The position numbers and the translations under genes are program-made. Source: Thiotrichaceae bacterium (GTDB taxonomy: Bacteria > Pseudomonadota > Gammaproteobacteria > Eutrophobiales > Eutrophobiaceae). Taken from it: a DNA stretch of 64,000 nucleotides. The stretch is taken from assembly GCA_012960105.1 (NCBI GenBank), contig DUBV01000014.1, positions 2,711-66,710 of the forward strand, read 5' to 3'. Shown here in pieces: positions 14,200 to 32,326 of the stretch (the stretch's first letter is position 1; every line of letters starts with the position of its first letter). The notes beneath the pieces are model-generated. The model searched no databases. It was given only the letters and a program-made list of their open reading frames with translations, and was not told the origin of the DNA.

Positions 14200-15399
14200 C
14201 TACCATTCCCAACCAAGCATTAAGCAATTTAAACCACTGCCAATACCCAGGAAACTAACTCTATCGCCTTTTTTGAGAAATTGTCTTTGCTCAGCTATAG
14301 CCGCTGTTAATGGAACAGAAACCGTACCGATATTGCCAAGATATTTATATGTGCTGAAATCTTTCTCAGGATCAATGCCCAATTCTTTTAATATAGTATC
14401 GCGATGACCTTCGCCTACTTGATGGCAAATCACTTTATCAACCTGATCTCTGGCCCAACCCATTCGGGTTAAAAAAGTACCCCAGGTTTTAACACCTAAC
14501 TTGGCACCATGCTTTAAAACAGCAACAGAATCAGTAGACATGAACTCGGATAACGCAGCAGGTAATTTTTCCGAAGGCATAATATTAGCTAATGCAGGCG
14601 GTAATTTCTCACTGGTCATCACATCCTTAATTGCTGTTGGTAAAACTTCAGGTTCCATTACCTGATCAATTGCTGCCAATAACTTATCCGGCGAAAACAT
14701 CAAGTCACCTATCGCTTGCGGTGTTAATGTCACACCCCAACGACAAAGTTCATGAAATTCCGGTGCAGATTGATTCGCGCCACCAAGCAAACGATGCGTA
14801 TCTTTATTATCAAAAGAACCATCCGTCAGTAACACGGCTGCGGCACCTGAACCACCAGTTAAGGTTGCTAAAGATTGAGTAAACATCGTCATACTTTTAT
14901 CATTCAACATCCGCTCAATCATAATTTCAACGATTTCACGAGAACTCTCACAGGACACCACCATACCAGCACGAATTTGTTTCAATTCAATTCGATTGGC
15001 AATATCGATAATGCCATTCATCACACCCAGACAAGCATTGGATATGTCATAAATATTTGCATCTTGACCAATTCCTAATTGGGAAGCGACTGCACAAGCG
15101 GTTGCCGGTTCAAAATTTTCCCGACAAACACCGGTATAAACCAGCGCTTCAATATCTTTCGCCTCAACATTGGATTGCTCCAACGCTTTACGAGCTGCAG
15201 CTGCAGCACCATCAGAAAGCACATGGCCTTTTTCCCACCAACGACGCTCATTAATGCCAGTTAAGGCCTGTAATTGTCCAGGAGCGATATGTAATGCCTC
15301 ATACATCGGTAGCAGACGTTGCTCTAAATCTTCGGAAGTAATGACTACTGGCGGCAATTCATAGCCGATAGATTCCATTTGTACGCGGGAGTATTTCAT
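14200..15399 (-). CDS. oleA: OleA-type thiolase (head-to-head Claisen condensing enzyme) with a repeat insertion
   Basis: Active-site NACLG (Cys123), ICHQVG His and GNIGTVS Asn, plus the OleA-specific Glu in CRENFEPATA. The ATG overlaps the stop of the upstream megasynthase. At 399 aa it is longer than the roughly 340-350 aa I recall for characterised OleA. Confidence 0.8.
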   Translation of the reverse strand: MKYSRVQMESIGYELPPVVITSEDLEQRLLPMYEALHIAPGQLQALTGINERRWWEKGHVLSDGAAAAARKALEQSNVEAKDIEALVYTGVCRENFEPATACAVASQLGIGQDANIYDISNACLGVMNGIIDIANRIELKQIRAGMVVSCESSREIVEIMIERMLNDKSMTMFTQSLATLTGGSGAAAVLLTDGSFDNKDTHRLLGGANQSAPEFHELCRWGVTLTPQAIGDLMFSPDKLLAAIDQVMEPEVLPTAIKDVMTSEKLPPALANIMPSEKLPAALSEFMSTDSVAVLKHGAKLGVKTWGTFLTRMGWARDQVDKVICHQVGEGHRDTILKELGIDPEKDFSTYKYLGNIGTVSVPLTAAIAEQRQFLKKGDRVSFLGIGSGLNCLMLGWEW

Positions 15400-18300
15400 A
15401 GGGCGCTCATTCTAAGCGCAAAATCCTTCATCTGATAGATAATTCGTCCATCTACAGTCAAAAAACCATTGGCAATTATCGTTTTCGACTCATCATCAAT
15501 CTCAGTAATCACGGCCTGTACCGTAACTTGTTCATCTACAGGCAAAATTTGACCTCGATAGACCCATTGATGGCTCTGGTCGAGCGCCATACTATCAAGA
15601 GCAAACTCGCCAATTTCCAGCTCATCCTGCCAACGTTCCCAGGCAAATACCTTCAATAATTGCATAAATGACTCTAATCCTAAGGAACCTGGCCAAACTG
15701 GATCCTCAAAGAAATGTGCTTTAAAAAACCAGGCATCTTCCTTAACACTGGCCTTGCCTTCAATGAAACCAAGACTATTAGGCCCACCTTCGGGGTCGTA
15801 TAAGGAAATTTCATCGACCATGCGCATCATATTTGCAGGCAGTGGTGCATCGACAGGATAAGGAAATGATTGCCCTCTGGATTGCTCCAATTCTGTCGGA
15901 ACATAAGGTTCCGCATCACGTATTCCTATCTGCTCAGCCAAAGCTTGATGCGAGAAGAAACCAAAATTAGTGTTTCCTTTATAAACCATTCCTTGAGAAG
16001 AATGCATTTCGTAATCGTAATTCTGAATAATCATACCGCCTGATTGCGAAACACTGGTCATTTTAACTCGAGTCATCAAAGTACCAATATCAGGAGTGAC
16101 TCGAATAAATTGCGTCGCCCTACCACCCAGATTTCTAAATGAGATATCAATATCACTAGTTAATGCAGAACCTAAATATCCCGCTAACCAACCACACGGT
16201 TGCAAAGCAACTTCAAGCAAAACTGCAAACGGCATATAAGGCTGATTATCTTCTGTGAAATACCATTCATCCACAGGCACATCGTATTCTGCTTCAATAA
16301 CGCCGCCTGCTTTTAGAACCCATTGTTCACAATCTTTGATAGATACAATACGATCAAGAAACTTATAGGGTGGTCCCGGTAAGCGTGCAATCTTACGTTC
16401 ACTATCAAATACTTTATATTTATCACCAAAGGCATCCGAAGGTTTACCAATAGCAAAAGCAAGAATTGACTCGTTATCAAATAAAACTTGTTTTGTTTTC
16501 GTCGATTTCTTATTACTCCAGAGTGCTTCGAGTTTTTCTCGTTTCAAACCACTTAACTGCACCGACATATTCTTCATCTGCACGATCGCACGATGATCGC
16601 CATACATTAACGCTTCTGCTAACACATAAGGTGTACCATCATCTTGGTAGCCAATTTCTTTTAAGGTGATTTCATATTGAACGGCTTTGGTTGTTTCATT
16701 GACCTGACCTCGACATTTCAACTGACTGACTTCATCTATAATAGGTTCATAAACAAATTCATCTTCTTCGCCTATCCAACCCATGCGTAACAAATAAACA
16801 CGTAAGGTATGTAAACAACATTCGTACATTAACGTACCCGGCATCACTCGGTCATCAACAAAGTGACACGTTAAAAACCAATCATCAGCATGAATATCTG
16901 CTTCGCCAGTAATTTGACCGATACCAAAACGACCGCCAGCAGGATCAAGTTTGAGTATGCGATGAACTAAAGTCATTCGACCACTAGGTAAACCCACCGG
17001 TTTATTGAGTTCAATATTTTCAAATGTCTCACCAAAACAAGCAGCTAAATCACCAGTACGTAATGCTGCCAATTGTTCATCGCTATAACTTTCAACCTGC
17101 ATGGAAACTAGCTCTTTCCAATCAGCAGAAAACTTTCCTTGTTCTTGTTGTTTTTCTAAACTTGTTAGTACAATTCCTTTACCGGCATCGAGTTCTTGTT
17201 GCGTAAAGAATCCAGCACACCCTTTCGTCATGGTTAATACTGGTTGTCCATTAGATGTACCGACAAAATTAAAACGAAATAATCGCGTTTCATCCTGACG
17301 AAAGAATTCCTCTATCTCGATATCATATTGAATAGTTTCACCTGCTTTAGGCAGGGAACCATGAAAAGTTATTTTTGCATCAAGTAAACGATAAACAGCT
17401 AAACCTTTTGCGATATGATCAATACCTAAATATCCTGATAAAAATAAATCAGCCTGTCCTGCTTCAACAGCAATACAGGTTGGGATACGTCCCTGATCTA
17501 AATACCATGCTCCCGGCAACACATCATGTTCAGTAATTACACGACCTTTACTACTTGGGTTATGCATTAAGGAATCTGCTTCGCCTTCTATATCTAAAAT
17601 ACGATCAACCAACATCAAAGGTTCATCTGGCAAACGTACTCGTGTGGGGTACTGATCAATATCAGCAAATTGAGAACCAAGCATTTTACCAATCGAGCCG
17701 ATTGCAAACTCCATGCACTGTTCCCTGTCATATAAACACTCAACCTCTTCTGGCACCTGAGCTTGGACTTCTGAAACTACTGGCACCTGTTTAAAATCAA
17801 CATTAGTTAAATCAATATCATCGCCATTCAACAACTGCATTTGCATATTAATCGCTTGCGTAATTGTCTCCGTCATTCCCTGACTCACACGTAAAAATGT
17901 TTCCTGTGCTTGAGAACGTGCTAGTTCGGTTTGCTGCATTTGCTGAATGATTGGATTGAAATCACCATTCGCAACCTTGGAAAAACTAGACAAGGGCAAT
18001 GGTATAACACTCTCGGCAGCTTCAATCTTTTTGCTTTCTAATTCACTTACTTCTGGCTTTGTATCTTGTTGCGTATTCGGTGGCATAGGTATTTTGAAAG
18101 CTTCACCGCCGGTCTTCACACTAATATAGTTTTTATACTCAGCTTTTTGTTTCTTTTCATTAACATCTAATTTTGACAAATCAACAGCAACACCTTCGGC
18201 ATAAAGTCGTGCAAGTAACTGCAGCACATTATCAACACTGTCTTGTCCTTTAACACAAACTGCTTTTGCATGATGAGGTTTGTTGCTATCGCTTTGGTCA

Positions 18301-21300
18301 AGAATTTGATCAATCATTCTTGTACATGATCCACCCGGCCCCATTTCTATGAATACGCGTACACCATCGTCATAAGCGCTATTAATAACTTTTGTATAAT
18401 CAAAATGTGATAATGCCTGATCAAGAATTGAATCTGCAGCAGAGTCTTGAGTGACTTCATAAGCACCACCACGAATACCACTATAAAAAGTAATCCCTGC
18501 TGGCGGTGTCGTTTCAAATATATGTAAATCTCGATAGGACTTTGCTACCGGTTTGGCCACTTCACAATGCACCGTCGTTACACCCGATAACGGATGATAC
18601 TGAGCGTTCAGTTCTTTAACAGCTTTATTTAATTCAGTCTTGTCACCACCAATAATGCATTCATTTGGTGTATTAATAATTAATAAATAAACACGTTGGT
18701 ATTTTTCTAATACAGTTTTAACGTTATCCGCACTGGTATTAATCACGCCTAATGCCCAATCTATTGGCTCGTCAGTATCCCATGCTTTTTGTACTGAAGT
18801 ACACGCGCCAGCAAGCTCTTCGGTAAACAAAGTACTTTGTTGAATACGTTTCAACATTTCGTCACGTGCCGTCCAGGTACGCGTTGAGAAAAAGCCTGCC
18901 GTTTCACCAAGACTATAACCAATGATCGCATTAGGCTTCACACCAAAATTAGCAACAACATCGCTAACAAACGTACCTAACCAGACTTGACCGAAGATGA
19001 CTTCTTCATGGCTTAATTCTTCGCCATGATTGTCCTCATTATCCTGGTTATTCCAAAAACGGCCTTTTGCAAATTGAGAAGCGAGCGCTTCATTTTCTTC
19101 ATTCAACTGTTCCAATACTTCAGGAAAAGCAACACCAAGTTCTTGTCCCATACCATAGAAATGACTTCCTGATCCCGGATAAACAAAAGCAATTTTGCCT
19201 GATTCAGTTAAAGGAGATGCTGAATAAAAACAGCGGCCATTATCAATGGAAGAATTATTTTCTATTGCTGCAATAACTTCTTTGCGTGCTAAATTAAATT
19301 CATTCTCATTCTTAATCAAGAATGCAACGCGAATTTTTCCATTCGCATCATCTTGAACACCACCATAAAACAACAAAGATTGAAGTTTATTAATTAATTC
19401 ACTTTTATCTTTTGCCGATACAGAAATAATCTTCGAGCTAATATTTTTAACACTCGTATTAACCTGGTTTTTTTTCTGGGCTTCCTGTAAAACAACACTA
19501 ATACAATTACCATCGATACTGGCACTATTCACTAAACTTTGTCGTGGTCCATCAATACGATCCTTTAACCAGTAACGTGCTTGTGAATTATTTCCATTTG
19601 GTAATACGCAATGATGTAAAGCACTTACGGTACTGGCAACACTCATCAATCCATTCGCAGCACCAGAATGTCCAAAAGGAAACGTGTTAGTTACGACGTT
19701 TTGTAATACGGGAATATCAGAAGAGATATCACCTGCGGCATAACTCACAGCGTCAATTTCATTTAAATGACACTTTGCATCTGAACAGGCATTTTGAATA
19801 GCGGCAATCTGCGCCGTTTGATCCGGTCTTGCATCACAACCACCCGCAGAGGCAACACCAATACCTTTAATCAAAGCATATACAGTATCGTTATCACGTA
19901 GTGCATCTTCATGACGTTTTAAAATAAAGGCCGTTGCACCATCAGCAACAACAGACTTGCCATAATAATCGACCTGCCCTTTAACAGCTCTCAAATCACT
20001 TGCTAAATCAACAGCACCAACAATTACTTGATCGAGTTCTTGTTGTTGTAATGCACGCACACCTGATTCCAATGCACGCATCCCAGAAGTCTCTTCTGCT
20101 GAAACTGTGAAAGCCGGACCACCGATACGGAAAGCTCGTGCAATACGACTGGCAACGATACCGCCTAAAGCTCCCATCGTACGATTGGCAGTTAATGCTG
20201 GACCAAAAGCTTGTTTAAGCTTCTCAACCCATTCAGTTAGTTCAGTATCAGTTAATGTTATACCTAATGATTTTAACCACCCACCTGCATATTTTTTCTG
20301 CATCCAACGAAAATGAAAGTTCGTTGTATTTAAATCAAGTGCTATTCCAATGAATACACCCGTTCTACATTGTTGTTCTGTAGATAATTCTGAAAGACCA
20401 GCATCTTCCAAAGCATTCGCAGCAACTTCAAGCATAAGTAATTGCTGCGGCAACATCTCTTTTAATTCCGCAGGAGGGATTCGATAACGACCTAAGGGGA
20501 CATTAACTTCATTGATTAAATTTCCTTCAATCACTTTACTATCTACACCCCAGCAATTATTGGGATGCGTCGCCTTTTTATCAGAACCAAATAATTGTGC
20601 TTCATCAAACGCTTGCTGATCATTCCATGGCCCCAAACGTGATTCCATACCAACGATAGCAATGTCTACTTGTTTCGTTTCAATAGCCGCTGCAGGTGAA
20701 GTTTTATCTGTCTCAGGCAAGTACTCTTGTAACAATACGTGAGCATTAATTCCCCCAAAGCCGAAACCACTAATCGCAGCGCGACGAGGAGTATTATCTT
20801 CGACATTCCATGACTCGGGTTTATCCAATACTTTGAATGGACTATTGGCTAAATCTATTTTACTCGAAGGATTTTCATAATTAGCTGTTGGTGGTAACAC
20901 ACCGTGCTTCATTGCTAACAAGGTTTTCATTAATGCGGCAGCACCGGCCGCTGTTAATAAATGACCGACATTACTTTTGACGGAACCAATAACACATTCA
21001 CCCCCAATATCAACACCTACATCATTCCGTTGCCAAAGATTATTTAATGATGTGAACTCAACACCGTCACCCACAGGTGTGCCAGTACCATGACATTCAA
21101 TAAGTTGTACCTGATCCGGTTTCCAACCTGCCTGAGTATAAGCAGATTGCATCGCGCGACCCTGACCTTCGGTATCCGGCGACATGATATTACCTTCGAT
21201 ATCATTGGAAAGACCTATGCCTTCTATAGTCGCGTAAATATGATCCTCTTGTTCTATTGCATCACTTAACCGCTTCAGTACAAAAATACCTGCGCCCTCA

Positions 21301-22073
21301 CCGACAACAAGACCGTCAGCTTTACTATCAAAGGGTGAACACCGTCCTGATTTTGAAATTGCATTGAGCTGAGAAAATCCCATTTGTGTATACAAACAAT
21401 CTGGTCTAGATACACCACCAGCTAACATCACATCAGTACGACCAGCGACTAATTCATCAATGGCATACTTCAATGAATAAAGTGAAGAAGAACACGCCGC
21501 ATCTAAAGTATACGCACCTGCGCCAAGGCCTAATGCTTTTGCTAATAAACCACCAGGCAAGCCAGCAACGTATCGGTTTAATGGTTCTGTTTTATTAATG
21601 GCAGTATGTGACGGATCATTTGAATTAACGTTTAATTTTTCTTCAAATAACTCTTTAAATATTTCATCACTGAATTGTGATGATGATTCCGTAGGAAGCG
21701 CAATATTTCCTATAACAATACCAACACGTTCTTTATTGATTGCATCTGTTTTTGCATCATTCCAGGCATCACGACCTGCATGCAATAGAATTTGATACAT
21801 GGGATCTAATCGATTTAATAATTCAGCATCGACATTTAAACCTTCAGGATTAAATTCAAAGTCTTGAATCAAACAAGCACGACGAGAATTCACTTTATCA
21901 GGAGCTAATTCAGGAGAATACAATTCATCAGGCTGTAAACGCCAACGATCTGCCGTCACATCAATAGCTGTATCTTTTGCATTCAGAATATTCTGCCAGA
22001 ATTCATCCAGATCACGTGCTCCGGGAAACACTCCGCCAATTCCGACAATGGCAATTTTATTTGTTGATTTCAA
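15396..22073 (-). CDS. pfaC: PUFA-synthase subunit, KS-CLF-AT-DH(FabA-like)x2 (PfaC / Pfa3-like with embedded acyltransferase)
   Basis: KS DAACSSSLYSL (Cys about aa 194). A second KS-like domain lacks the Cys (TVSAEETSG), which marks it as a CLF. AT GYSLGE (Ser about aa 1054). Two FabA-type motifs (LTCHFVDDRVMPG, FKAHFFEDPVWPG). The start is TTG at 22071..22073, with an in-frame TAA three codons upstream. Confidence 0.9.
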   Translation of the reverse strand: MKSTNKIAIVGIGGVFPGARDLDEFWQNILNAKDTAIDVTADRWRLQPDELYSPELAPDKVNSRRACLIQDFEFNPEGLNVDAELLNRLDPMYQILLHAGRDAWNDAKTDAINKERVGIVIGNIALPTESSSQFSDEIFKELFEEKLNVNSNDPSHTAINKTEPLNRYVAGLPGGLLAKALGLGAGAYTLDAACSSSLYSLKYAIDELVAGRTDVMLAGGVSRPDCLYTQMGFSQLNAISKSGRCSPFDSKADGLVVGEGAGIFVLKRLSDAIEQEDHIYATIEGIGLSNDIEGNIMSPDTEGQGRAMQSAYTQAGWKPDQVQLIECHGTGTPVGDGVEFTSLNNLWQRNDVGVDIGGECVIGSVKSNVGHLLTAAGAAALMKTLLAMKHGVLPPTANYENPSSKIDLANSPFKVLDKPESWNVEDNTPRRAAISGFGFGGINAHVLLQEYLPETDKTSPAAAIETKQVDIAIVGMESRLGPWNDQQAFDEAQLFGSDKKATHPNNCWGVDSKVIEGNLINEVNVPLGRYRIPPAELKEMLPQQLLMLEVAANALEDAGLSELSTEQQCRTGVFIGIALDLNTTNFHFRWMQKKYAGGWLKSLGITLTDTELTEWVEKLKQAFGPALTANRTMGALGGIVASRIARAFRIGGPAFTVSAEETSGMRALESGVRALQQQELDQVIVGAVDLASDLRAVKGQVDYYGKSVVADGATAFILKRHEDALRDNDTVYALIKGIGVASAGGCDARPDQTAQIAAIQNACSDAKCHLNEIDAVSYAAGDISSDIPVLQNVVTNTFPFGHSGAANGLMSVASTVSALHHCVLPNGNNSQARYWLKDRIDGPRQSLVNSASIDGNCISVVLQEAQKKNQVNTSVKNISSKIISVSAKDKSELINKLQSLLFYGGVQDDANGKIRVAFLIKNENEFNLARKEVIAAIENNSSIDNGRCFYSASPLTESGKIAFVYPGSGSHFYGMGQELGVAFPEVLEQLNEENEALASQFAKGRFWNNQDNEDNHGEELSHEEVIFGQVWLGTFVSDVVANFGVKPNAIIGYSLGETAGFFSTRTWTARDEMLKRIQQSTLFTEELAGACTSVQKAWDTDEPIDWALGVINTSADNVKTVLEKYQRVYLLIINTPNECIIGGDKTELNKAVKELNAQYHPLSGVTTVHCEVAKPVAKSYRDLHIFETTPPAGITFYSGIRGGAYEVTQDSAADSILDQALSHFDYTKVINSAYDDGVRVFIEMGPGGSCTRMIDQILDQSDSNKPHHAKAVCVKGQDSVDNVLQLLARLYAEGVAVDLSKLDVNEKKQKAEYKNYISVKTGGEAFKIPMPPNTQQDTKPEVSELESKKIEAAESVIPLPLSSFSKVANGDFNPIIQQMQQTELARSQAQETFLRVSQGMTETITQAINMQMQLLNGDDIDLTNVDFKQVPVVSEVQAQVPEEVECLYDREQCMEFAIGSIGKMLGSQFADIDQYPTRVRLPDEPLMLVDRILDIEGEADSLMHNPSSKGRVITEHDVLPGAWYLDQGRIPTCIAVEAGQADLFLSGYLGIDHIAKGLAVYRLLDAKITFHGSLPKAGETIQYDIEIEEFFRQDETRLFRFNFVGTSNGQPVLTMTKGCAGFFTQQELDAGKGIVLTSLEKQQEQGKFSADWKELVSMQVESYSDEQLAALRTGDLAACFGETFENIELNKPVGLPSGRMTLVHRILKLDPAGGRFGIGQITGEADIHADDWFLTCHFVDDRVMPGTLMYECCLHTLRVYLLRMGWIGEEDEFVYEPIIDEVSQLKCRGQVNETTKAVQYEITLKEIGYQDDGTPYVLAEALMYGDHRAIVQMKNMSVQLSGLKREKLEALWSNKKSTKTKQVLFDNESILAFAIGKPSDAFGDKYKVFDSERKIARLPGPPYKFLDRIVSIKDCEQWVLKAGGVIEAEYDVPVDEWYFTEDNQPYMPFAVLLEVALQPCGWLAGYLGSALTSDIDISFRNLGGRATQFIRVTPDIGTLMTRVKMTSVSQSGGMIIQNYDYEMHSSQGMVYKGNTNFGFFSHQALAEQIGIRDAEPYVPTELEQSRGQSFPYPVDAPLPANMMRMVDEISLYDPEGGPNSLGFIEGKASVKEDAWFFKAHFFEDPVWPGSLGLESFMQLLKVFAWERWQDELEIGEFALDSMALDQSHQWVYRGQILPVDEQVTVQAVITEIDDESKTIIANGFLTVDGRIIYQMKDFALRMSAL

Positions 22074-22105
22074 AATTATTTACTTCTTCTTTTCTTTTAC
22101 TTTCG

Positions 22106-22159
22106 ATTTCAATTTCAATTTCAATTTCAATTTCAATTTCAATTTCAATTTCAATTTCA
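22106..22159. repeat. hexanucleotide microsatellite (ATTTCA)x9
   Basis: Counted directly: nine perfect units. Begins 33 nt upstream of the pfaC TTG start. Confidence 0.95.
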
Positions 22160-22215
22160 ATTTTTAATTTTTAATTTTTAATTTTTAATTTTTAATTTTT
22201 AATTTTTAATTTTTA
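22160..22215. repeat. heptanucleotide microsatellite (ATTTTTA)x8, directly abutting the hexamer array
   Basis: Counted directly: eight perfect units. On the coding strand of pfaC the units read TAAAAAT. Confidence 0.95.
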
Positions 22216-22523
22216 ATAATATTTAACAACCCTAGATTTATCTTTAAATAACAAACTTATTAAATTCAAAATTCTTTTCGTCTGTAATTAGCGGTTAATT
22301 TTAATAGGTTGTTTTTCCAGAGCACGTGTAATTACTTCCAGAATAAATTCTCGTTCTTTGTAAGGAAAGGCTTTCCATTCATTCAAGCCTATTTCAATTA
22401 CTAATCTTTGCAGCCTATTTTCCAAGGAAAACATTTTACATAATTATACTATACTTCAAATAATCATCATCAATTTCACTCAACTGTAGTAGCTCAGTAT
22501 TTCTGTGCATCACTAAATATTTT

Positions 22524-22645
22524 CTAAACAGATTCAGCCAATGCTTGTGTCATATTCATATAAGTATCTGATACTGTTTCAATATAATTAACATATTCGT
22601 CACGGGCATCCAATCACTCTTATAACTTCGAAAGAAACGTTCCAC
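22524..22645 (-). pseudogene. relic of the C-terminal end of an IS3-family (IS911-like) transposase OrfB
   Basis: Minus-strand translation gives VERFFRSYKSDWMPVT (compare the IS911-type MERFFRSLKNEWIPVV as I remember it). After a frame change it gives DEYVNYIE (compare ITDYIVGYY). There is no start codon, stops flank it, and no terminal inverted repeats were recognised. Confidence 0.4.
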
Positions 22646-22663
22646 TTAACTACACACCATATA

Positions 22664-23278
22664 CTATAAAAACTGAACAATATCCCTTTCTATAAGATAA
22701 CTAACAATCGTTTCAATGCATTCTTCTATTGAGAGTTTGGCAGTATCTAATACAATTTCAGCATTTTCTGGCGCGTCATAAGGTGAAGAGATACCTGTAA
22801 AATCTGATATTTCGCCTGCACGTGCTTTTTTATACAAACCTTTAACATCACGGGATTCACAATCCTCAAGTGAAGCAGAGCAATGTATTTCTATAAACTC
22901 ACCTTCGCCAACTAACTCTCGAACAATCTTTCTATCTTTAATAAAGGGAGAAATAAAAGCAGTCAAAACAATTACACCCGCATTCATCATCAACTTACTT
23001 ACTTCACCAATACGCCGGATGTTTTCTGTACGATCATTATCAGAAAAACCGAGGTCATTACACAGGCCACGACGGATATTGTCACCATCCAAAACATATG
23101 TTCTTATTTGCTTTCTATGTAAGGTATCTTCCAATGCATGAGATAAACTTGATTTACCCGCACCAGACAAACCCGTAAACCAAATAATGACGCTCTTATG
23201 CCCATTCATTATCTCTCGATCAGTTCGATAAACCGAAGGCTCGTGCCAGACTGTATTTTGGTTAGTTATTTTATTCAT
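22664..23278 (-). CDS. cysC: adenylylsulfate (APS) kinase
   Basis: P-loop FTGLSGAGKSS and a typical CysC body. 204 aa. Confidence 0.9.
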   Translation of the reverse strand: MNKITNQNTVWHEPSVYRTDREIMNGHKSVIIWFTGLSGAGKSSLSHALEDTLHRKQIRTYVLDGDNIRRGLCNDLGFSDNDRTENIRRIGEVSKLMMNAGVIVLTAFISPFIKDRKIVRELVGEGEFIEIHCSASLEDCESRDVKGLYKKARAGEISDFTGISSPYDAPENAEIVLDTAKLSIEECIETIVSYLIERDIVQFL

Positions 23279-23331
23279 AAGAATATGATAGTGACATTTT
23301 TTCTAAAATCCTTGAATCATGACTTATTAAG

Positions 23332-23445
23332 CTAAGTTGTTGAAAAGTTATAAAATGTGACAGGTTTATAGCCTGCTTGTGCTAAATGTTTACAATTATG
23401 TGAACCGATATAACCTGCTCCGCTTATTAAGAGAATATTTTTCAT
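23332..23445 (-). pseudogene. 37-codon 5' stub of a GalE-like NAD-dependent sugar epimerase
   Basis: Read from the sequence: MKNILLISGAGYIGSHNCKHLAQAGYKPVTFYNFSTT then stop. This matches the GalE Rossmann N-terminus (GxGYIGSH..C..L...G). The rest of the gene is absent. Confidence 0.6.
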
Positions 23446-23462
23446 CTTATTTATAGCATTAC

Positions 23463-24413
23463 TTAAGGGGAAGTAACATTAAAAGGTAAATTATTGAGGT
23501 ACCAATCGTAAGTTGATTTTATACCTTCTTGTAATGTCGTTTTATTCTTCCAACCCAGATTATTTAGCTTGGACACATCACAACATTTTTTAAGTGTGCC
23601 ATCGGGTTTCGATGAATCAAAAACGATGTCTCCTCCGTAGCCAACAATCCCTTTTATTAATTCCGCTAATTCTTTAATACTAACGTCTTGGCCTGTACCA
23701 ATGTTTACAATAGATTCGTCATCGTAAGTTTGCATCAGGAAACAACAGGCTTCTGCCATATCATCGATATAGAAAAACTCGCGATAGGGTTTGCCCGAAC
23801 CCCATATTTCAACGGCTTCTTTATTCTCTATTTTACCTTCATGAAATTTTCGTATTAATGCAGGTAATACATGTGAGCCTATTAGATCAAAATTATCATT
23901 TGGGCCATATAGATTCGTTGGCATAAGTGAAATGGCATTGAAACCATATTCTTTGCGATAGGCTTGGCAAAGTTTTATTCCCGATATTTTGGCTATCGCA
24001 TACCATTGGTTTGTTTCTTCCAGTGGCCCGGTTAATAAATATTCTTCTTTGATAGGTTGCGGACAATCACGCGGGTAAATACAGGTCGAACCGAGAAATG
24101 CGAGTTTCTTTACGCCATTGCGATAAGCCGCTTCAATTACGTTCGTTTGTATTAAAAGATTATCTCGAAGGAATTTAACCGGTTGGGTATCGTTGGCGTG
24201 TATACCGCCAACAACAGCGGCTGCCAGGAATACGTATTCTGGTTGTTGTTGTTTGAAAAATGAATCAACAGCGATTGGGTCACAAAGATCGAGTTCGTTG
24301 CGCGACCGTGTAATCAGATTATTGTGGTTATCGGATTTTAGTTTACGACATATCGCATTGCCGACTAATCCATTATGCCCCGCGACATAGATCTTTGAAT
24401 CTTTTTGCATCAC
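23463..24413 (-). CDS. fcl: GDP-L-fucose synthase (GDP-4-keto-6-deoxymannose epimerase/reductase)
   Basis: N-terminus KIYVAGHNGLVGNAI and an SDR-extended body. Immediately downstream of gmd. Confidence 0.9.
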   Translation of the reverse strand: MMQKDSKIYVAGHNGLVGNAICRKLKSDNHNNLITRSRNELDLCDPIAVDSFFKQQQPEYVFLAAAVVGGIHANDTQPVKFLRDNLLIQTNVIEAAYRNGVKKLAFLGSTCIYPRDCPQPIKEEYLLTGPLEETNQWYAIAKISGIKLCQAYRKEYGFNAISLMPTNLYGPNDNFDLIGSHVLPALIRKFHEGKIENKEAVEIWGSGKPYREFFYIDDMAEACCFLMQTYDDESIVNIGTGQDVSIKELAELIKGIVGYGGDIVFDSSKPDGTLKKCCDVSKLNNLGWKNKTTLQEGIKSTYDWYLNNLPFNVTSP

Positions 24414-24420
24414 GTCGAAC

Positions 24421-25479
24421 TTATTTGTTATTTATTAGAACTTCATTTTCGACTAACAGCATATCTCTTTGCATCATTTCGTCAATCATTTCATTCAGGT
24501 TCGTCGTTGGCGTCCAGCCTAATTTTTCTTTTGCTTTGGTCGGATCTCCTAATAGACTCTCTACCTCTGTAGGGCGGTAGTATCTCGGATCAACTTCGAC
24601 AATACAGTTTCCTTCATTGTCATAGCCTATTTCTTCGGCATCCTTTCCTTTCCAGGTAATGTCTATATCAACACTTTTTGCAGCGAATTCAATAAACTCT
24701 CTAACGCTATATTGCACACCGGTGGCAATCACATAATCTTCCGGTTCATCCTGTTGCAACATTAGCCATTGCATCTCGACATAATCTCGCGCATGCCCCC
24801 AATCGCGTTTTGCATTGAGGTTTCCGATATACAATTTATCTTGCAAGCCTTGCTTGATTCGGCTTAATGCCATGGTAATTTTTCTGGTTACAAATGTTTC
24901 ACCTCGTACCGGAGATTCGTGATTAAACAAAATACCATTACAAGCATAAATACCATAAGCTTCACGATAGTTAACCGTTATCCAATACGCATAGAGCTTT
25001 GCAACACCGTAGGGTGAGCGTGGATAAAACGGTGTTGTTTCTTTTTGCGGTACTTCCTGAACAAGACCATAAAGTTCTGATGTTGATGCTTGATAAAAAC
25101 GCGTCTTCTTCTCCAACTTTAGAATGCGGATTGCTTCAAGTATTCTTAGTGGACCCAGAGCATCCGAGTTAGCTGTATATTCCGGTTCTTCAAATGAAAC
25201 TGCTACATGACTTTGTGCGGCAAGGTTATATATTTCATCCGGCTGAGATTCCTGAATAATACGCGTAAGGCTAGTGGAATCGGTCATATCACCGTAATGC
25301 AAAATAAAATTACGATCCGACACATGCGGATCTTGATATAAGTGATCAATTCTATCGGTATTTATAAGCGAACTTCTTCGTTTAATACCATGAACAATAT
25401 AACCCTTGTTCAATAAAAATTCGGCTAGATAAGCCCCATCCTGCCCCGTGATACCCGTTATTAATGCTATTTTTGTCAT
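24421..25479 (-). CDS. gmd: GDP-mannose 4,6-dehydratase
   Basis: [19 protein letters not shown] and GIKRRSS motifs. 352 aa. Confidence 0.9.
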
Positions 25480-25500
25480 GAATTTAGTCTAATTAAAGAA

Positions 25501-25523
25501 TTAAAGGGGACGTTACCCTTTAA
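25501..25523 (-). terminator. small AU-rich stem-loop spanning the pfaA stop codon (possible weak terminator/attenuator before gmd)
   Basis: 8-bp stem TTAAAGGG / CCCTTTAA with a 7-nt loop. On the minus strand it is followed by UUCUUUAAUU. Only 3 G:C pairs. Confidence 0.25.
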
Positions 25524-28500
25524 ACGTTTTCTTTTTTATCTAGTTTATTTTTCTTGAATGCTGCTTGTAACGAAGCATCGCGTACGCATTCGTATCCATC
25601 CATTAGAGCGATCAACTTACCGTCACCATCAAGAAACTCTATTGCTGCTTTGGCTTTGTGAGCGGTATGCTCGTTTACTTCGGCAATAATTTTTGCACTG
25701 TCTTTTGGATAGTTACGTTGATATTGGCGATAACTTGCAATCGCTGTTGGTAACGAAGCACTATCATTTTCTTCGAAACTCCAGAGAATCATCATCTGGA
25801 ATGCGGAATCAAGAATTAGAGGATCAGTTAACCAGCCTGAACGTATCGGTTGATTCATCCAAGTTGATGGTTGCGCTGCTGCGCTTACATTGGCAACGAT
25901 GCCTTTATCACTACATTGTGTTACTTCTATAATGCCTTGTAGTTCTTGCCCATGAAATAACTGGCCATTATTGTAATATTCACCTTGTTTCTTTTTATAT
26001 GTCTCATTAACAGATTTTAATTGTGGCAATACATTTGATTCATAGTTATCAGCCAAAATCATTATTGCACTGGCATGTAATAATTCATCTGAATGTAATT
26101 CTACAGGAACAAGGGACACATCACCTTTATGTATAATTGTGCCTGCAAGGATTCTTAAATGAATATTTTCATCTGCATTTAATTTAATACCTTTTAAAAT
26201 GCGAAAATCATCGAAGCCCTGAAATTGCATACCAGGATTTAAATGTAATGCACCGTGAGCAAACCACTCGATGATAATGGCCATAGGTAAAACAGCCCGG
26301 CCATTAATTACGTGTGATTTCAGAAACGGATGAGAGCTGACGGAAAGATCACGTTCAAATGCTAATGATAAATTACTGCTATCTGCTTCTGATACTGAGT
26401 AATTAAATAGGGGTATCTTTTTAAGAAGATTTTCTGCCTCACCTAATATCACTGTTTCAACAGGACCATTAGATTCTATTTCTTGTATTAGATAATCAGC
26501 ACCGGCTTTTAAGCCAATAACGCCAACGCCCTCTTCGGCAAATAGTTTCTTTAGTGCCGGTGTGACCATGCCACCATCCCAAGGTCCCCAGTTAACCGAT
26601 AAGACTTTGCAATCTTTTCTATTTTTATTCTGACTAATGTTTTCTTGGGTCGCTTGTTTATTTAAAATTTCATTTGCAGCAGCATAATCAACCTGACCTT
26701 TACGACCCAGTCTTGCTGTTGTCGATGAAAATAACACCATGAGTTTTAATGCATCGCTACTTGTCGCTGACAATAAACTTTGCAGTCCTTCTACCTTGGT
26801 AGAGTAAACACGATTAAATTGTTCTTCTGTTTTGTCTTCTATTAGTCTATCAGCAAGTACACCGGCAGCATGTACTATTCCAGTAACGTTACCTAACTCA
26901 GTACGCGCCAGATTAATCACATTTGCAACAGCATCTTCATTGGTCACATCGACTGAGCTGTATTCTACTTTTGCACCTGTCTGTTCAATTCGTCCTAGTG
27001 TTGTTGTGATTTCTCGATTGGCGAGAATTGATTGATAGCGTTTTTCTAGGTCAGCAGGCCGAAGTTTTTCTTCTGTATTTTCCATTATGGCTTTCTTAAT
27101 ACTTGCTGCACTAGATAAAGACATTAACCATTCAGCTTCTGCTTCCGGTTCTGGACTACGACCGAGTAATAATAAAGAACATTGATATGTTTCAGCTAAT
27201 TTAACGGCAACTTCTGCAGTCACACCGCGGGCACCACCTGAAATAACGATTAAGTCTTCTTTGTTTAGTCGTTTATTTTCTTTTTTGTTTTGGGTGAGCG
27301 TTTCTTCTTCCAGTATTAACTGGCTACATTTACCATTTGATATGCCAACTTCCAATGGTCCCGCTAGAAAGAGTTCTTTCTGAATTAAATCGAGTGATGC
27401 AGAGGCTTGATTAATATCGATAGCTTTGCAATTAACTTCCGTCCATTCCTTGTCTGCTGTTTTAATAATGCCATACAAGCCTGCTTGTACAGGATTGCCT
27501 TTCTTAAATTTTTCAAATCCAAATTGACCACCTAACGTGGTAATTGCAGCGAGTATGCCTTTCGATTTTTTCAGACTAGTACTGCAACGCTGAATTAAGG
27601 CAAAGGTATCAAGTAAATATTGTTTATTTGCATCTTCTTTCGCATAAATAATAAGAGCACCTAGTTCATCGCTGGGTTCATTACTTGCTTCATCATCATT
27701 GCTTATTAATTTTGCTTTATAGCCTTTTCCTTGAAGTTCAGTGACTAGCTGTTTAGCGCGTTTGCCGCCATCTTTGGTAACCCATATTTCTTTGTCTTTG
27801 TTGAATTCTATCTGTTGACGCTGAGATTTATTATCAATGGCCACAACACGAACAACACTGCGGATAATTCTCGATTCTGTTTGTTTTACCTTAGCATCAA
27901 CGACAACATCAACAACTGGTGCCGGCTTATTAACACTAGACGCTTGCTCATCCATATACTCAACGATTTGTTGCAAGGTTTGTAATGCAGCAAGATCATC
28001 TGCGGACACTGTTGGCAAACTTGGCATTTTGTCTTGTAGTGCCGATAAGATTTCAACTCGCTTGATTGAGTCGATACCTAAATCGCTATCCAAATTCATT
28101 TCCAGATTTAACATGTCAACTGGATAACCGGTTTTGTCGGCAACAACTTCAAGTAGCACTTCTGATAAATTTGAGTCGCTTGTCGCTATTGCTGCTGGAG
28201 CTTGCTCTACTTCTGATACATTAAAGATATCAACAATCGACTGTAGTGTTTGCAAGGTTGCCATATCATCTGGACTTACTGCTGGTAGTTCAGGAATTTG
28301 TTCTTGTATTGCCGAAAGGATTTCAACACGCTTAATCGAATCGATACCTAAGTCACTATCCAGGTTCATTTCCAGATTAAGCATATCAACCGGATAACCG
28401 GTTTTATCTGCGACTACATCAAGTAAGGTGTTTGCAAAACCGCTAACAACATTTGTTTCTTGAGGGGCTACGGAAACTGAGGCTGTTTCTACAGAAACAA

Positions 28501-31500
28501 ATAATTCTGTAATAGAACGTAAGGTTTGCAATTGACCCAATTCATCAGGGCTAACTGTCGGTAATTCTGGCATCGCTTCTTGTAGTGCAGACATGATCTC
28601 AACACGTTTGATCGAATCGATACCCAGATCACTATCCATATTCATATCTAGATCCAGCATATCGATGGGATAACCAGTTTTTTCTGAGACTATCTCCAAC
28701 AAAACCTTATCAAAATTATTATTAACTTGAGCTGATGTTGTTGTAGTCGTTTTTGTTGCTGTACTCATAACCGCAGCTACAGGTCTTCCCGCAGCAATAA
28801 ATTCAACAATATGCTGCAAGAATTGGAAGGTACTCAATTCTTCAGGATTCACTGCTTGTGACCAAGGTAATTGTTCTTGTAAGGCTGAAAGAATTTCTAC
28901 ACGCTTGATTGAGTCAATACCCAGATCCGTATCCAGACTCATATCGAGACTTAGCATTTCTAATGGATAACCAGTTTTTTCTGATACGACATTTAATAAT
29001 AAATTGTTGATATCTACATCAGCATGTTCTTCAGCAATTGGCGCTGTCGATTTAATTTCAACAATTTCTTTAACAACAGTTTCCATCTTCGCTTGAACAG
29101 GAACTGCCTGTGCCTGAGTTGTCTGCGCTGGAGTTGCTTGTACTGATACTGGTGCGGCTAACGGCTGACCTGACATTAATCGTTGTTGTTGTTCTAACAA
29201 TGATTGTATCGATTTCTGTGCAGTTTCCTGTCCTTCAAGATACTGTTGATGCAAACGTGCGGTTTGTTCCTGCATTTTTTGTAACGCAAGAATACTTTGC
29301 TGCGTAGTTTGTAACAAACCACTGCTAGCAACAGTCGTACTTGTTACTGGCACTGTTTGTGTTGTGCTGCTTTTAGTGCTTGAAGAAATATTTTTTACAT
29401 CATTGTTCATAGTGTTAACACTTGCTGTTGGACTCTGTATATTTTTTGGCTTACTTGCAGGACGTGGTTTACGTGGCATCGTGTAGTTCGCACCACTAAT
29501 CGCAATCGTCATTGCTGGCTTCACATCTTTCGCTGGCCTTTCCAGTTCCGAACAAGCTCCATCCCATTTTTTAAGATCGAGTTGAATACCATTTGCAGCT
29601 AATGTAGCCAAGACAATCGCCAAATCATATTGACCTTGTTTTTTACCCACTGAGGCATCAACGGCAATTGCCGTGATAGGTTTATCTGCAAGTATCGATT
29701 TAATTAACCCAGTTAATGTTTTACCCGGACCTACTTCAACAAAGGTAGTCACACCTTCGGCAAATAATTTTTCAACTTGTTCTACAAAACGAACCGGAGA
29801 AGCTAGTTGATTAGCTAATAATTGCTTCACTGCTTTTGCATCATCTGGATAAGCATCGGTTGTTGTATTAGACAATACTTGAAAAGTATTTTTTGAAAAC
29901 TCAAATGGCTCTAGTGCTTCTGCAAAAGGTTTCGCTGCATCAGCAACAAAAGAACTATGGAATGCGGCTGCAACCGGTAATTTAATTGCACGTATTTTTT
30001 CTGCTTTGGCTATCTTTGCAAAGGTATCAACTTGATCTGTTGCACCAGATAACACTACCTGCGTGGGTGAATTATGATTCGCAATAATTAAATCAATTTT
30101 GTTTTCTTTTAATATTGATTCAACTTTTTCATACGCTGCGACCACTGCCACCATTGATCCGCGATCACCTTCGCCTGCCGCCATTAATTCACCACGAATT
30201 CGCGACAAACGATTTAAAGTGTCAGCGTTGTACATGCCTGCTGCTGATAATGCGGTTAATTCACCATAGCTATGACCAATCGCTGATTTTGGTTTTACTG
30301 AAAAATGATTTAATATATCAAGTGCACCTAGACTCACTGCACCAATGGCAGGCTGTGCATTTTGCGTTTGTCGTAGGGTTTCTTCTTGTTGTTTTTGATC
30401 TGCTTTAGAGAAAACGGAGATTGGATAAACGATGTCTCCGAGACTTTCTTTTCCAGTTGATTCTATAAACGTGTTGTTTGCTTGCTCTAATGCATTTAAA
30501 AATTGCGGAAACTGACAAGCCAGATCACGACACATCCCGGTGTATTGCGATCCTTGCCCAGGAAAAACAAAAGCAATGTTGTCGTTACATTTTTCGGAAC
30601 TGTATGCCACACCATCCGGTCTTTGCCATGCTGTTTCTGTTGAAGGCGCTAATTGTTTTTTAACATCGGCAATTAATTTATTAAGCTCTGTGTTAGATTT
30701 TTCTAAAACTATGGTCAGACGATGAGCAGCATCACTTTTAAAACTTTGGCACGAATCATAAACAAAGAATCTTAGTTCATTCCATGAATCGACAATGGAA
30801 GATGTGGGCAGTTGTTTTATTAACTCTTCTTTTGAGTCTGCACTTAATGCAAGAATTAATACATGACCATCCCATTCAATTTCTGTTTTTGTTTCTTCTG
30901 CTTCTTCCAATACACAATGAAAATTACTGCCGCCAAAACCAAATGAACTTAAACCTGCTCGACGCGGTGTCGTTTGTGTTTTTAACCACGGACGTTTAAC
31001 GGTATTTAAATAAACAGGTGATGTGCCGGGGTTAATAATTTCCAGTGGTTCATCAACTTTAATACTCGGTGGTAATACTTTATATTTCAAAGCCATTGCT
31101 GTTTTAATTAGACCTGCAACACCGGCTGCGGCTTTGGTATGTCCGATCATGGATTTTACTGATCCAATCGCACACCACGTTTCATCTGCATTATCTTCAG
31201 CGTAAACACCGGACAAGGCTTTTGCTTCAACCGCATCACCGACTGCGGTACCAGTACCATGCGCTTCAACTAACTCTATGCTTCTTGGTGATACATCCGC
31301 TTCACGATAGGCATTCCATATTGCTTTGGTTTGACCTGCTGCACTCGGTGCATAGATTGCATTACCTCGTCCATCTGATGAAGAACCGATACCACGTAAT
31401 ACTGCATAAATTTTATCGTTGTCACGTTTAGCATCATCCAAACGTTTTAATACAACCGCACCTATGCCTTCGCCTAATATTGTGCCATCACCTTCTTTGG

Positions 31501-32326
31501 CAAACGGACGACTATTACCTGTTGGTGATAAGGCTGGTGTTTTACTAAAACACATGTACATGAAGATATCGTTGAAAGTATCAACACCACCGGTAATTGC
31601 CATATCAACACGACCGGCATTGAGTTCCATCGCAGCCAAATGTAATGCGCTTAATGAACTAGCACAGGCGGCATCAACGACACAGTTAGTACCACCAAAA
31701 TCAAAGCGATTAGCAATACGACCTGCGGCAACATTACCTAATAAACCCGGAAACGAATTTTCTTGCCAAGGCACATAACCATCGGCAATACGTTGTACAA
31801 TTTCTTCAGTTGTTTCTGCATCGATACCCGCATCAGCTAAAGCCTTGCGCCATATCGGATGACCGAGTCTTGCACCTAATGGAATCACTAATTCTAAAGT
31901 ACCGGTCACACCCATAATGACGCTGGTACGATCACGATCAAATTCACGTCCATCACCAGCATCTTTCGCTGTTGAATAATTTGCATCTAATAGCGCCTGA
32001 CGTGTTACTACCATGGCGAGTAATTGCGTGGTATCGGTTGCTTCAATATTGTTTGGACTTAGACCATACAACAGTGGATTAAAATCTTGTGAATTAATAA
32101 AGCCGCCACGTTTAGCATAAGTCATGTCTGGTGCAGTTTTATCTGCATCAAAATAATCTTCGGGCTTCCAATGTGTCTTAGGGATATCACTTATCGCATC
32201 GACACCTTCGCGAATATTAGTCCAATACTCTTGCGGACTGTCTGCTTTTGGAAACAAGCAGCCTATGCCTACTATGGCGATTGGTGACATTTGTTGTTTC
32301 GTATTTTTGTTTTCTTTCTTAGACAT
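25520..32326 (-). CDS. pfaA: PUFA-synthase subunit, KS-AT-ACPx4-KR-DH (PfaA / Pfa2-like)
   Basis: KS DAACASSLSAL (Cys221) and AT GHSYGE (Ser686). Four LGIDSIKRVEI ACP motifs (Ser at aa 1139, 1238, 1330, 1420). KR ISGGARGVTAEVA. PKS-type DH HPFLKSHVINGRAVLP. Confidence 0.92.
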   Translation of the reverse strand: MSKKENKNTKQQMSPIAIVGIGCLFPKADSPQEYWTNIREGVDAISDIPKTHWKPEDYFDADKTAPDMTYAKRGGFINSQDFNPLLYGLSPNNIEATDTTQLLAMVVTRQALLDANYSTAKDAGDGREFDRDRTSVIMGVTGTLELVIPLGARLGHPIWRKALADAGIDAETTEEIVQRIADGYVPWQENSFPGLLGNVAAGRIANRFDFGGTNCVVDAACASSLSALHLAAMELNAGRVDMAITGGVDTFNDIFMYMCFSKTPALSPTGNSRPFAKEGDGTILGEGIGAVVLKRLDDAKRDNDKIYAVLRGIGSSSDGRGNAIYAPSAAGQTKAIWNAYREADVSPRSIELVEAHGTGTAVGDAVEAKALSGVYAEDNADETWCAIGSVKSMIGHTKAAAGVAGLIKTAMALKYKVLPPSIKVDEPLEIINPGTSPVYLNTVKRPWLKTQTTPRRAGLSSFGFGGSNFHCVLEEAEETKTEIEWDGHVLILALSADSKEELIKQLPTSSIVDSWNELRFFVYDSCQSFKSDAAHRLTIVLEKSNTELNKLIADVKKQLAPSTETAWQRPDGVAYSSEKCNDNIAFVFPGQGSQYTGMCRDLACQFPQFLNALEQANNTFIESTGKESLGDIVYPISVFSKADQKQQEETLRQTQNAQPAIGAVSLGALDILNHFSVKPKSAIGHSYGELTALSAAGMYNADTLNRLSRIRGELMAAGEGDRGSMVAVVAAYEKVESILKENKIDLIIANHNSPTQVVLSGATDQVDTFAKIAKAEKIRAIKLPVAAAFHSSFVADAAKPFAEALEPFEFSKNTFQVLSNTTTDAYPDDAKAVKQLLANQLASPVRFVEQVEKLFAEGVTTFVEVGPGKTLTGLIKSILADKPITAIAVDASVGKKQGQYDLAIVLATLAANGIQLDLKKWDGACSELERPAKDVKPAMTIAISGANYTMPRKPRPASKPKNIQSPTASVNTMNNDVKNISSSTKSSTTQTVPVTSTTVASSGLLQTTQQSILALQKMQEQTARLHQQYLEGQETAQKSIQSLLEQQQRLMSGQPLAAPVSVQATPAQTTQAQAVPVQAKMETVVKEIVEIKSTAPIAEEHADVDINNLLLNVVSEKTGYPLEMLSLDMSLDTDLGIDSIKRVEILSALQEQLPWSQAVNPEELSTFQFLQHIVEFIAAGRPVAAVMSTATKTTTTTSAQVNNNFDKVLLEIVSEKTGYPIDMLDLDMNMDSDLGIDSIKRVEIMSALQEAMPELPTVSPDELGQLQTLRSITELFVSVETASVSVAPQETNVVSGFANTLLDVVADKTGYPVDMLNLEMNLDSDLGIDSIKRVEILSAIQEQIPELPAVSPDDMATLQTLQSIVDIFNVSEVEQAPAAIATSDSNLSEVLLEVVADKTGYPVDMLNLEMNLDSDLGIDSIKRVEILSALQDKMPSLPTVSADDLAALQTLQQIVEYMDEQASSVNKPAPVVDVVVDAKVKQTESRIIRSVVRVVAIDNKSQRQQIEFNKDKEIWVTKDGGKRAKQLVTELQGKGYKAKLISNDDEASNEPSDELGALIIYAKEDANKQYLLDTFALIQRCSTSLKKSKGILAAITTLGGQFGFEKFKKGNPVQAGLYGIIKTADKEWTEVNCKAIDINQASASLDLIQKELFLAGPLEVGISNGKCSQLILEEETLTQNKKENKRLNKEDLIVISGGARGVTAEVAVKLAETYQCSLLLLGRSPEPEAEAEWLMSLSSAASIKKAIMENTEEKLRPADLEKRYQSILANREITTTLGRIEQTGAKVEYSSVDVTNEDAVANVINLARTELGNVTGIVHAAGVLADRLIEDKTEEQFNRVYSTKVEGLQSLLSATSSDALKLMVLFSSTTARLGRKGQVDYAAANEILNKQATQENISQNKNRKDCKVLSVNWGPWDGGMVTPALKKLFAEEGVGVIGLKAGADYLIQEIESNGPVETVILGEAENLLKKIPLFNYSVSEADSSNLSLAFERDLSVSSHPFLKSHVINGRAVLPMAIIIEWFAHGALHLNPGMQFQGFDDFRILKGIKLNADENIHLRILAGTIIHKGDVSLVPVELHSDELLHASAIMILADNYESNVLPQLKSVNETYKKKQGEYYNNGQLFHGQELQGIIEVTQCSDKGIVANVSAAAQPSTWMNQPIRSGWLTDPLILDSAFQMMILWSFEENDSASLPTAIASYRQYQRNYPKDSAKIIAEVNEHTAHKAKAAIEFLDGDGKLIALMDGYECVRDASLQAAFKKNKLDKKENV
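27950..29015 (-). repeat. tandem array of four ACP-domain repeats (about 270-297 nt period) inside pfaA
   Basis: The phosphopantetheine Ser codons lie at 28910, 28613, 28337 and 28067. The surrounding DNA is visibly near-identical between units, especially units 3 and 4. Confidence 0.85.

Follow-up and report, generated by a model that had tools for sequence, protein, structure and literature searches.

A length-variable compound microsatellite upstream of the pfaC-ole genes in an uncultured marine gammaproteobacterium and its probable origin in a pseudogene tail

In the window, the 64,000-nt stretch of DNA analyzed here, two perfect repeat arrays precede the TTG start codon of a pfaC-like gene, and both differ in copy number between assemblies of the same species. 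We consider the tract most likely to be an ordinary and very active long simple sequence repeat (LSSR) that arose from the tail of a pseudogene and now rides in an untranslated, unstructured A/U-rich leader. Judged from the assembled sequences, both arrays change by whole units far faster than their flanks take substitutions, and the pattern points to slippage as the mechanism of this change. The LSSR kind is already known, and the pfaC tract is a further member. Its particular value lies in the birth of a compound microsatellite that can be traced to a pseudogene tail, and in the breadth of alleles among near-identical uncultured marine genomes.

Structure and genomic setting of the tract

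An exact regular-expression search and Tandem Repeats Finder both recovered the two arrays (Table 1), which were perfect and abutted without a gap, as the original prediction had stated. The hexamer array measured 54 nt and the heptamer array 56 nt, giving a tract of 110 nt that spans -33 to -142 relative to the pfaC TTG at 22073 on the minus strand, the very position that had been claimed. Read on the minus strand, the order is (TAAAAAT)8(TGAAAT)9, followed by the 32-nt leader and the pfaC TTG. The A+T content was 100% in the heptamer array, 83% in the hexamer array and 92% in the combined tract. Tandem Repeats Finder gave each array a score of 119 and every other repeat in the 64-kb window a score of 43 or less, which agrees with the prediction that no similar tract occurs there. 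The whole assembly (2.54 Mb in 116 contigs, 38.9% G+C, 98.5% complete) contained only 15 perfect repeats 20 nt or longer, among which the two pfaC arrays ranked second and third longest. The longest perfect repeat in simulated genomes (8 order-3 Markov genomes with the same size and tetranucleotide statistics) was 15-20 nt. The arrays far exceed this maximum, indicating that the tract is real and not a product of chance. A coding reading of the tract was rejected because stop codons occur in all six frames across the heptamers.

Every gene between 34007 and 9131 is on the minus strand. Linked pfa-like and ole genes have been described before, and it has been suggested that such an arrangement supplies polyolefin synthesis (PMC3098273; PMC6463001). 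Remains of a TPR gene were recognized in the cysC-pfaC spacer. The remnant corresponds to residues ~185-257, the C-terminal third, of a 267-codon open frame for a membrane-anchored TPR protein of ~232 aa, and the congener protein carries TPR_11. Upstream of it lies a relic that we take to be the tail of an IS3-family OrfB, having recognized the motif ourselves rather than by a profile score, and an IS3-type insertion probably truncated the TPR gene. Closer to pfaC, AAGAAG would serve as a weak Shine-Dalgarno element; a G>A SNP at 22083 falls inside it in two of the other assemblies. The window order at the pfaA/pfaC junction (22074-25519) was gmd-fcl, a galE stub, cysC, the IS relic and the TPR remnant.

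Table 1. Features of the pfaD-ole region, in window positions
Feature	Position	Strand	Remarks
pfaD-like gene	32331-34007	-	
pfaA-like gene	25520-32326	-	
gmd	24421-25479	-	
fcl	23463-24413	-	
cysC (APS kinase)	22664-23278	-	Last intact gene upstream of pfaC
cysC-pfaC spacer			~590 nt; untranslated; contains the repeat tract
Sigma-70-like site TAGAAA-18-TATAGT	22663-22692	-	Consensus scan
IS3-family transposase (OrfB) tail relic (presumed), ERFFRSYKSDWMP...	~22524-22645	-	Six-frame translation; stop-interrupted
Best sigma-70-like site of the leader, TTGATG-19 nt-TATAAT	22443-22473	-	10/12, long spacer; consensus match only
TPR-gene remnant with in-frame stop	22219-22437	-	tblastn E = 6e-21 against congener gene
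48-codon ORF	22288-22434	-	Part of the TPR remnant ahead of its premature stop
Heptamer array (ATTTTTA)8	22160-22215		(TAAAAAT)8 on the pfaC-sense (-) strand; exact search and Tandem Repeats Finder
Hexamer array (ATTTCA)9	22106-22159		(TGAAAT)9 on the pfaC-sense (-) strand; exact search and Tandem Repeats Finder
Proximal leader, CGAAAGTAAAAGAAAAGAAGAAGTAAATAATT	22074-22105	-	32 nt between hexamers and TTG
Shine-Dalgarno-like AAGAAG	22083-22088	-	9 nt before TTG; only such element
pfaC-like gene	15396-22073	-	TTG start, 2225-aa ORF; KS, CLF-type second KS, weak AT, FabA-type dehydratases
oleA, oleB, oleC, oleD, PPTase (phosphopantetheinyl transferase) gene, methyltransferase gene	Downstream of pfaC to 9131	-	

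Copy-number variation among conspecific assemblies

We gathered conspecific contigs by identical-protein look-up with cysC, the 48-codon ORF and oleA. A pattern scan of metagenome contigs with the left anchor gave 0 hits, probably because near-identical records are withheld from the collection. Alleles, written as heptamers/hexamers, were read from assemblies and not from sequencing reads. The fully spanned alleles were 8/9 in the window and in GCA_029935955.1, 8/7 in GCA_029935975.1, 6/9 in GCA_029935915.1, 8/8 in JGI 3300001683, 6/7 in GCA_029936015.1 and 9/10 in JGI 3300048883. Partial alleles were found in JGI 3300048884 (7/?), in GCA_029936055.1 (at least 7 heptamers on one contig and at least 10 hexamers on the other), in Logan SRR35532284 (at least 4 heptamers and exactly 4 hexamers) and on the cysC-side contig of GCA_029936035.1 (6/at least 8). 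The pfaC-side contig of the latter (JAPOGK010002799.1, 1-142) carried at least 8 heptamers followed by (TGAATT)6(TGAAAT)2, an array incompatible with that of its cysC-side contig, so at least two alleles are present in that sample. The six consecutive TGAATT units suggest a point change in one unit that then spread by slippage. Over all assemblies, heptamers numbered 6, 7, 8 or 9 and hexamers 4, 7, 8, 9, 10 or at least 10, the spanned alleles ranged from 84 to 123 nt, and the arrays were perfect apart from the allele with the TGAATT variant unit.

The flanks of these alleles were 99.3-99.98% identical. The length polymorphism foreseen in the original prediction was thus seen between conspecific assemblies, as distinct from reads. 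Over 10.6 kb compared between the window and three assemblies, the repeat was the sole indel besides scaffold N's and one 49-nt deletion. No SNP occurred in 3228 nt upstream among three assemblies, yet their alleles were 6/9, 8/8 and 8/9. Many expanded alleles coexist in related samples.

We weighed whether these differences are assembly artefacts of a tract that is stable in nature. Each periodic run is ~63 nt long, above common k-mer sizes, and at least 9 contigs stop inside the tract or no more than 50 nt away from it, as such a reading would expect. Against it, alleles both longer (9/10) and shorter than that of the window occur, always in whole units, and the alleles are associated with linked SNPs in the flanks (22083, 22029). 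The incompatible arrays on the two contigs of one MAG (GCA_029936035.1) speak against it as well. In the Logan contig with 4 hexamers, single words bridge the last heptamer and the right flank if the Logan word length of 31 nt applies, and on that assumption repeat collapse is excluded there. A 25-nt (AACTC)5 tract elsewhere in the genome was also identical in 10/10 assemblies. These results make an artefactual origin of the copy-number differences very unlikely. In practical terms, the tract is an assembly hazard, at which many MAG contigs break, and a possible strain marker.

The genome holds another heptamer tract outside the window, at C20:1527-1568, which reads (CAGCAAA)n on the sense strand. 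A 173-aa gene of unassigned function begins 44 nt downstream of this tract and is followed by a putAbiC (abortive-infection-like) gene. Across eight conspecific assemblies the tract had 3, 4, 5 or 6 copies. Since (CAGCAAA)n varies and the short (AACTC)5 is invariant, instability is general to the longer tracts of this organism and not special to pfaC.

Other differences were noted among the aligned assemblies. JGI 3300001683 (Guaymas-type, GBIDBA_10000100) lacked 49 nt near the pfaC 5' end (window 21889-21937). Such a deletion would shift the frame, and the gene call in that assembly begins 59 codons further on. Either a real variant or a mistake in an old assembly could account for it. Between the window and each of the three fully aligned assemblies, 13 SNPs clustered in ~500 nt of fcl (23593-24078) with near-identical flanks, which looks like a recombination tract. 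A fourth MAG showed 11 differences from the window over the same 3.2 kb. The protein look-up returned no other record of the window's fcl protein variant.

Origin of the tract

Neither array motif, allowing up to 1 mismatch, was found in 22 other species genomes of the genus or elsewhere in the window's own genome, and no repeat preceded pfaC in any species genome of the genus that was fetched. The arrays are specific to one species. In some congeners pfaC has an ATG start and is preceded directly by the end of pfaA, and in the closest species (87% protein identity) it is preceded by gmd-fcl-galE. In other congeners the TPR gene comes before it, with its TAA 4-5 nt before a conserved TTGAAA start, and a few have a non-coding leader of ~150-200 nt or other DNA at this place. 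The TTGAAA start is conserved in congeners with an insert (TPR gene or non-coding leader) before pfaC.

Alignments showed that homology to the TPR gene ends at the heptamer edge and resumes after the hexamers at ...GTAAAAG...TAAATAATT-TTG. The ~145 nt of the window at this point stand against ~40 nt in relatives, which encode the last ~10 Lys-rich codons ('CEKHKKVKAK*').

A Logan contig, SRR3577362_4474, matched the window at 99.98% identity, with 3 mismatches over 15,387 nt (contig positions 685-16071), in a stretch that starts 13 nt before the TTG and takes in the entire ole cluster. Upstream of this breakpoint (positions 1-697), identity to the window fell to only 71%, and the contig carried a nearly full-length TPR gene that was frameshifted and stop-interrupted and had no repeat. 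Its unexpanded site reads ...CATAAAACATAAAACAGTAAAATCGAAGTAAATAATT-TTG and, in longer form, ...TGCATAAAACATAAAACAGTAAAATCGAAGTAAATAATT-TTG, that is, TAAAACA twice and then TAAAAT where the window has its arrays. We read this site as the pre-expansion state, in which case the TPR gene would already have been defunct when the repeats expanded. No species representative was more than 76% identical to the upstream DNA of the contig. By its sequence, the contig could come from a genuine recombinant strain, or it could be a k-mer chimera that includes DNA of an unsampled sister lineage; with either origin it still shows the former state of the site.

From these comparisons, a course of events can be proposed. 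The proto-units TAAAACA (twice) and TAAAAT would have sat in the Lys-rich last codons of a TPR gene that once ended 4-5 nt before pfaC. The TPR gene would then have become a pseudogene, shortened by an IS3-type insertion, and its freed tail may have drifted into the heptamer array with 100% A+T and the hexamer array with 83% A+T. Expansion of the proto-units would have proceeded by slipped-strand mispairing, in the window's species alone. If the tract is a mere product of slippage, it offers a clean natural example of microsatellite birth, in which the pre-expansion state, a 7-mer present twice where a decaying gene encodes its Lys-rich end, survives in relatives.

The pfaA-pfaC junction itself is an insertion hot spot across the genus. 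The two genes abutted in 9 of the 19 congeneric loci fetched, and other junctions held gmd-fcl-galE, gmd-fcl with a variant of the TPR gene, or just the TPR gene.

Transcription and possible effects on expression

We assessed whether a separate pfaC-ole operon could have its promoter in the arrays, or formed by them, by way of -10/-35-like hexamers, an UP element or a bend. In favour are the 92% A+T of the tract and the TTGAAA, a 5/6 match to the -35 consensus, that (TGAAAT)n supplies every 6 nt, but no -10 partner was found 15-19 nt from any TTGAAA of the hexamer array. The heptamers reached only 8/12, as TTAAAA-17 nt-AAAAAT in five registers. The -10-like TAAAAT that the original prediction placed in the heptamers is absent from (TAAAAAT)n and from the tract, each unit having five A's. 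A program scan detected no sigma-70-like site on the minus strand at 22074-22660, and a second consensus scan detected none of 9/12 or better in or beside the arrays. The nearest promoter-like sites (Table 1) precede the arrays by ~230 and ~450 nt, and the 110-nt tract is too long for a promoter spacer. In congeners with the TPR gene, moreover, the counterpart of the array position is coding DNA of the upstream gene that abuts the start codon, which argues that no ancestral promoter lay at the array site.

The tract resembles phased A-tract bends and UP elements in having A-runs on one strand of very A/T-rich DNA upstream of a gene, but its period is 6 or 7 bp instead of ~10.5 bp and it has no core promoter at the required distance. 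A 7-bp spacing rotates each A-tract by 240 degrees, so the bends cancel every three units. The vector sum of 9 unit bends was 0.45 and 0.00 for the 6- and 7-bp periods, compared with 9.0 for a 10.5-bp period. A wedge model gave end-to-end/contour ratios of 0.99-1.00 for the arrays, compared with 0.95 +/- 0.03 when A/T-rich DNA was random and 0.50 in a control with phased A-tracts; the phase arithmetic is independent of the parameters of this model. The proposal of an intrinsically bent or UP-like element did not hold up, the DNA being predicted to be straight with no core promoter downstream. On these scans and this model, the arrays form no bend, and a promoter function of the tract is highly improbable. 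A promoter of non-sigma-70 type, or a weak A/T-rich one, might still be present at the arrays.

No terminator-like site was detected between cysC and pfaC. Because of this, and of the 4-5 nt gap between the TPR stop codon and the TTG in congeners, read-through appears at least as likely as an independent pfaC-ole promoter. Most likely the tract belongs to a transcribed leader, whose transcription would come through from pfaD-pfaA-gmd-fcl-cysC or start at the promoter-like site at 22443-22473. This candidate promoter lies ~370 nt upstream of pfaC and could drive pfaC-ole with a leader of that length. Its TATAAT, a perfect match, precedes the ATG of the 48-codon ORF by 9 nt and falls where the IS3 relic meets the TPR remnant; the site may be an IS-derived or a fortuitous promoter.

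In the predicted RNA fold the repeats were unpaired (z = -1.15), and a structured-RNA reading was rejected on this ground. The sense strand of the repeats is without C. No Rfam match was obtained over 21900-23400 at E <= 1. We know of no match between the repeat units and the consensus sequences of IHF or of named lipid regulators.

Long simple sequence repeats are the class to which these features point. Heptamers are the commonest long SSR class in prokaryotes, according to Mrazek, Guo & Shah 2007 as summarized in PMC4679880 and PMC11868660. Like LSSRs, the pfaC tract has perfect 6- and 7-nt units and lengths (54 and 56 nt) far above the 15-20 nt of the longest repeats in the 8 Markov genomes. 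Its copy number varies by whole units between close strains (heptamers from 6 to 9, hexamers from 4 to 10 or more, in assemblies and not reads), and it shares a non-coding location for a unit whose length is not a multiple of 3. It differs in being a compound of two related units, both variable, with a birth site that can be traced to a pseudogene tail, and in its host, an uncultured marine gammaproteobacterium poor in such repeats (the 15 perfect tracts counted in its assembly). Marine Beggiatoaceae carry intergenic TAACTGA heptamers directly upstream of start codons, for which a 5' UTR role was proposed (one unit at 169 loci in a genome; PMC4679880). Both cases concern heptamer direct repeats upstream of start codons in marine gammaproteobacteria, but each pfaC unit occurs at a single locus in its genome and in none of 22 congeners. 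TAACTGA dimers were absent from the window's own genome. A dispersed heptamer family of the Beggiatoaceae TAACTGA or cyanobacterial STRR type was rejected, as each unit is found at one locus only.

The closest functional analogue is found in hmw1A/hmw2A of Haemophilus influenzae, where 9-28 heptamer copies in a mapped promoter region relate inversely to mRNA (Dawid et al. 1999, as cited in PMC2424069; PMC8262952). Both systems have a 7-nt unit upstream of a start codon that varies between strains. The relation to mRNA was measured in H. influenzae; a surface adhesin is concerned there and a lipid synthase here, with no host association evident. The wider analogy to host-adapted bacteria drawn in the original prediction does not obviously apply, the conspecific contigs coming from environmental metagenomes and the congener records being titled as uncultured Gammaproteobacteria or Thiotrichaceae MAGs.

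By analogy with these heptamers, tract length might act as an expression rheostat that tunes the amounts of PfaC and Ole enzymes, giving a population with mixed levels of polyunsaturated-lipid or polyolefin synthesis. Copy number is truly variable in both arrays, the tract stands 33 nt before a weak TTG start, a place at which a leader element could count, the one Shine-Dalgarno-like sequence there (AAGAAG) is itself weak, and there is the precedent that more 7-bp repeats lower hmwA mRNA (PMC2424069). The coupling implied by the 4-5 nt gap in congeners is lost here, and an A/U-rich unstructured leader could matter for ribosome loading. However, no promoter elements stand at a useful spacing, allele lengths follow no obvious pattern (84-123 nt when spanned, and 4 hexamers in one run), and the near-identical pfaC-ole contig of SRR3577362 has no repeat at all. 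The equal variation of (CAGCAAA)n in the same species also means that variation alone is no argument for selection. We regard a rheostat as possible, though doubtful.

Were the tract functional, graded control would be the likely mode by the hmw1A/hmw2A analogy, and any effect on pfaC-ole would, on the sequence features, be graded through leader length or the A/U-rich leader and not on/off. The unstructured A/U-rich leader could influence ribosome loading or RNase E access, a possibility raised for ribosome loading by the TTG start, the sole AAGAAG with its SNP and the loss of the translational coupling implied in congeners. Expansion of the repeat under selection, as an evolvable ribosome-loading (S1/standby-type) leader after the death of the TPR gene, is unlikely on these sequence features. 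The preferred reading, an LSSR from a pseudogene tail, is consistent with neutrality or a weak effect of the tract.

The regulation of the polyolefin/membrane hydrocarbon pathway has been described as almost unknown (PMC3098273). If the tract did tune pfaC-ole, bet-hedging by repeats would reach beyond host-adapted pathogens and surface antigens, to free-living marine bacteria and to the synthesis of membrane hydrocarbons. If the leader were selected, slippage would provide heritable, reversible variation in PUFA-derived polyolefin output within a free-living deep-sea population, making the site a contingency locus for membrane lipid composition instead of a surface antigen.

Shorter repeats were also observed 12-90 nt upstream of gene starts on other contigs of the assembly. 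These were (AACTC)5 at C111:6201-6225, upstream of a SapC-family gene, (ATCTC)4 at C87:3406-3425, a 10-mer in three copies at C53:76953-76982 and a 9-mer in three copies at C39:74476-74502.
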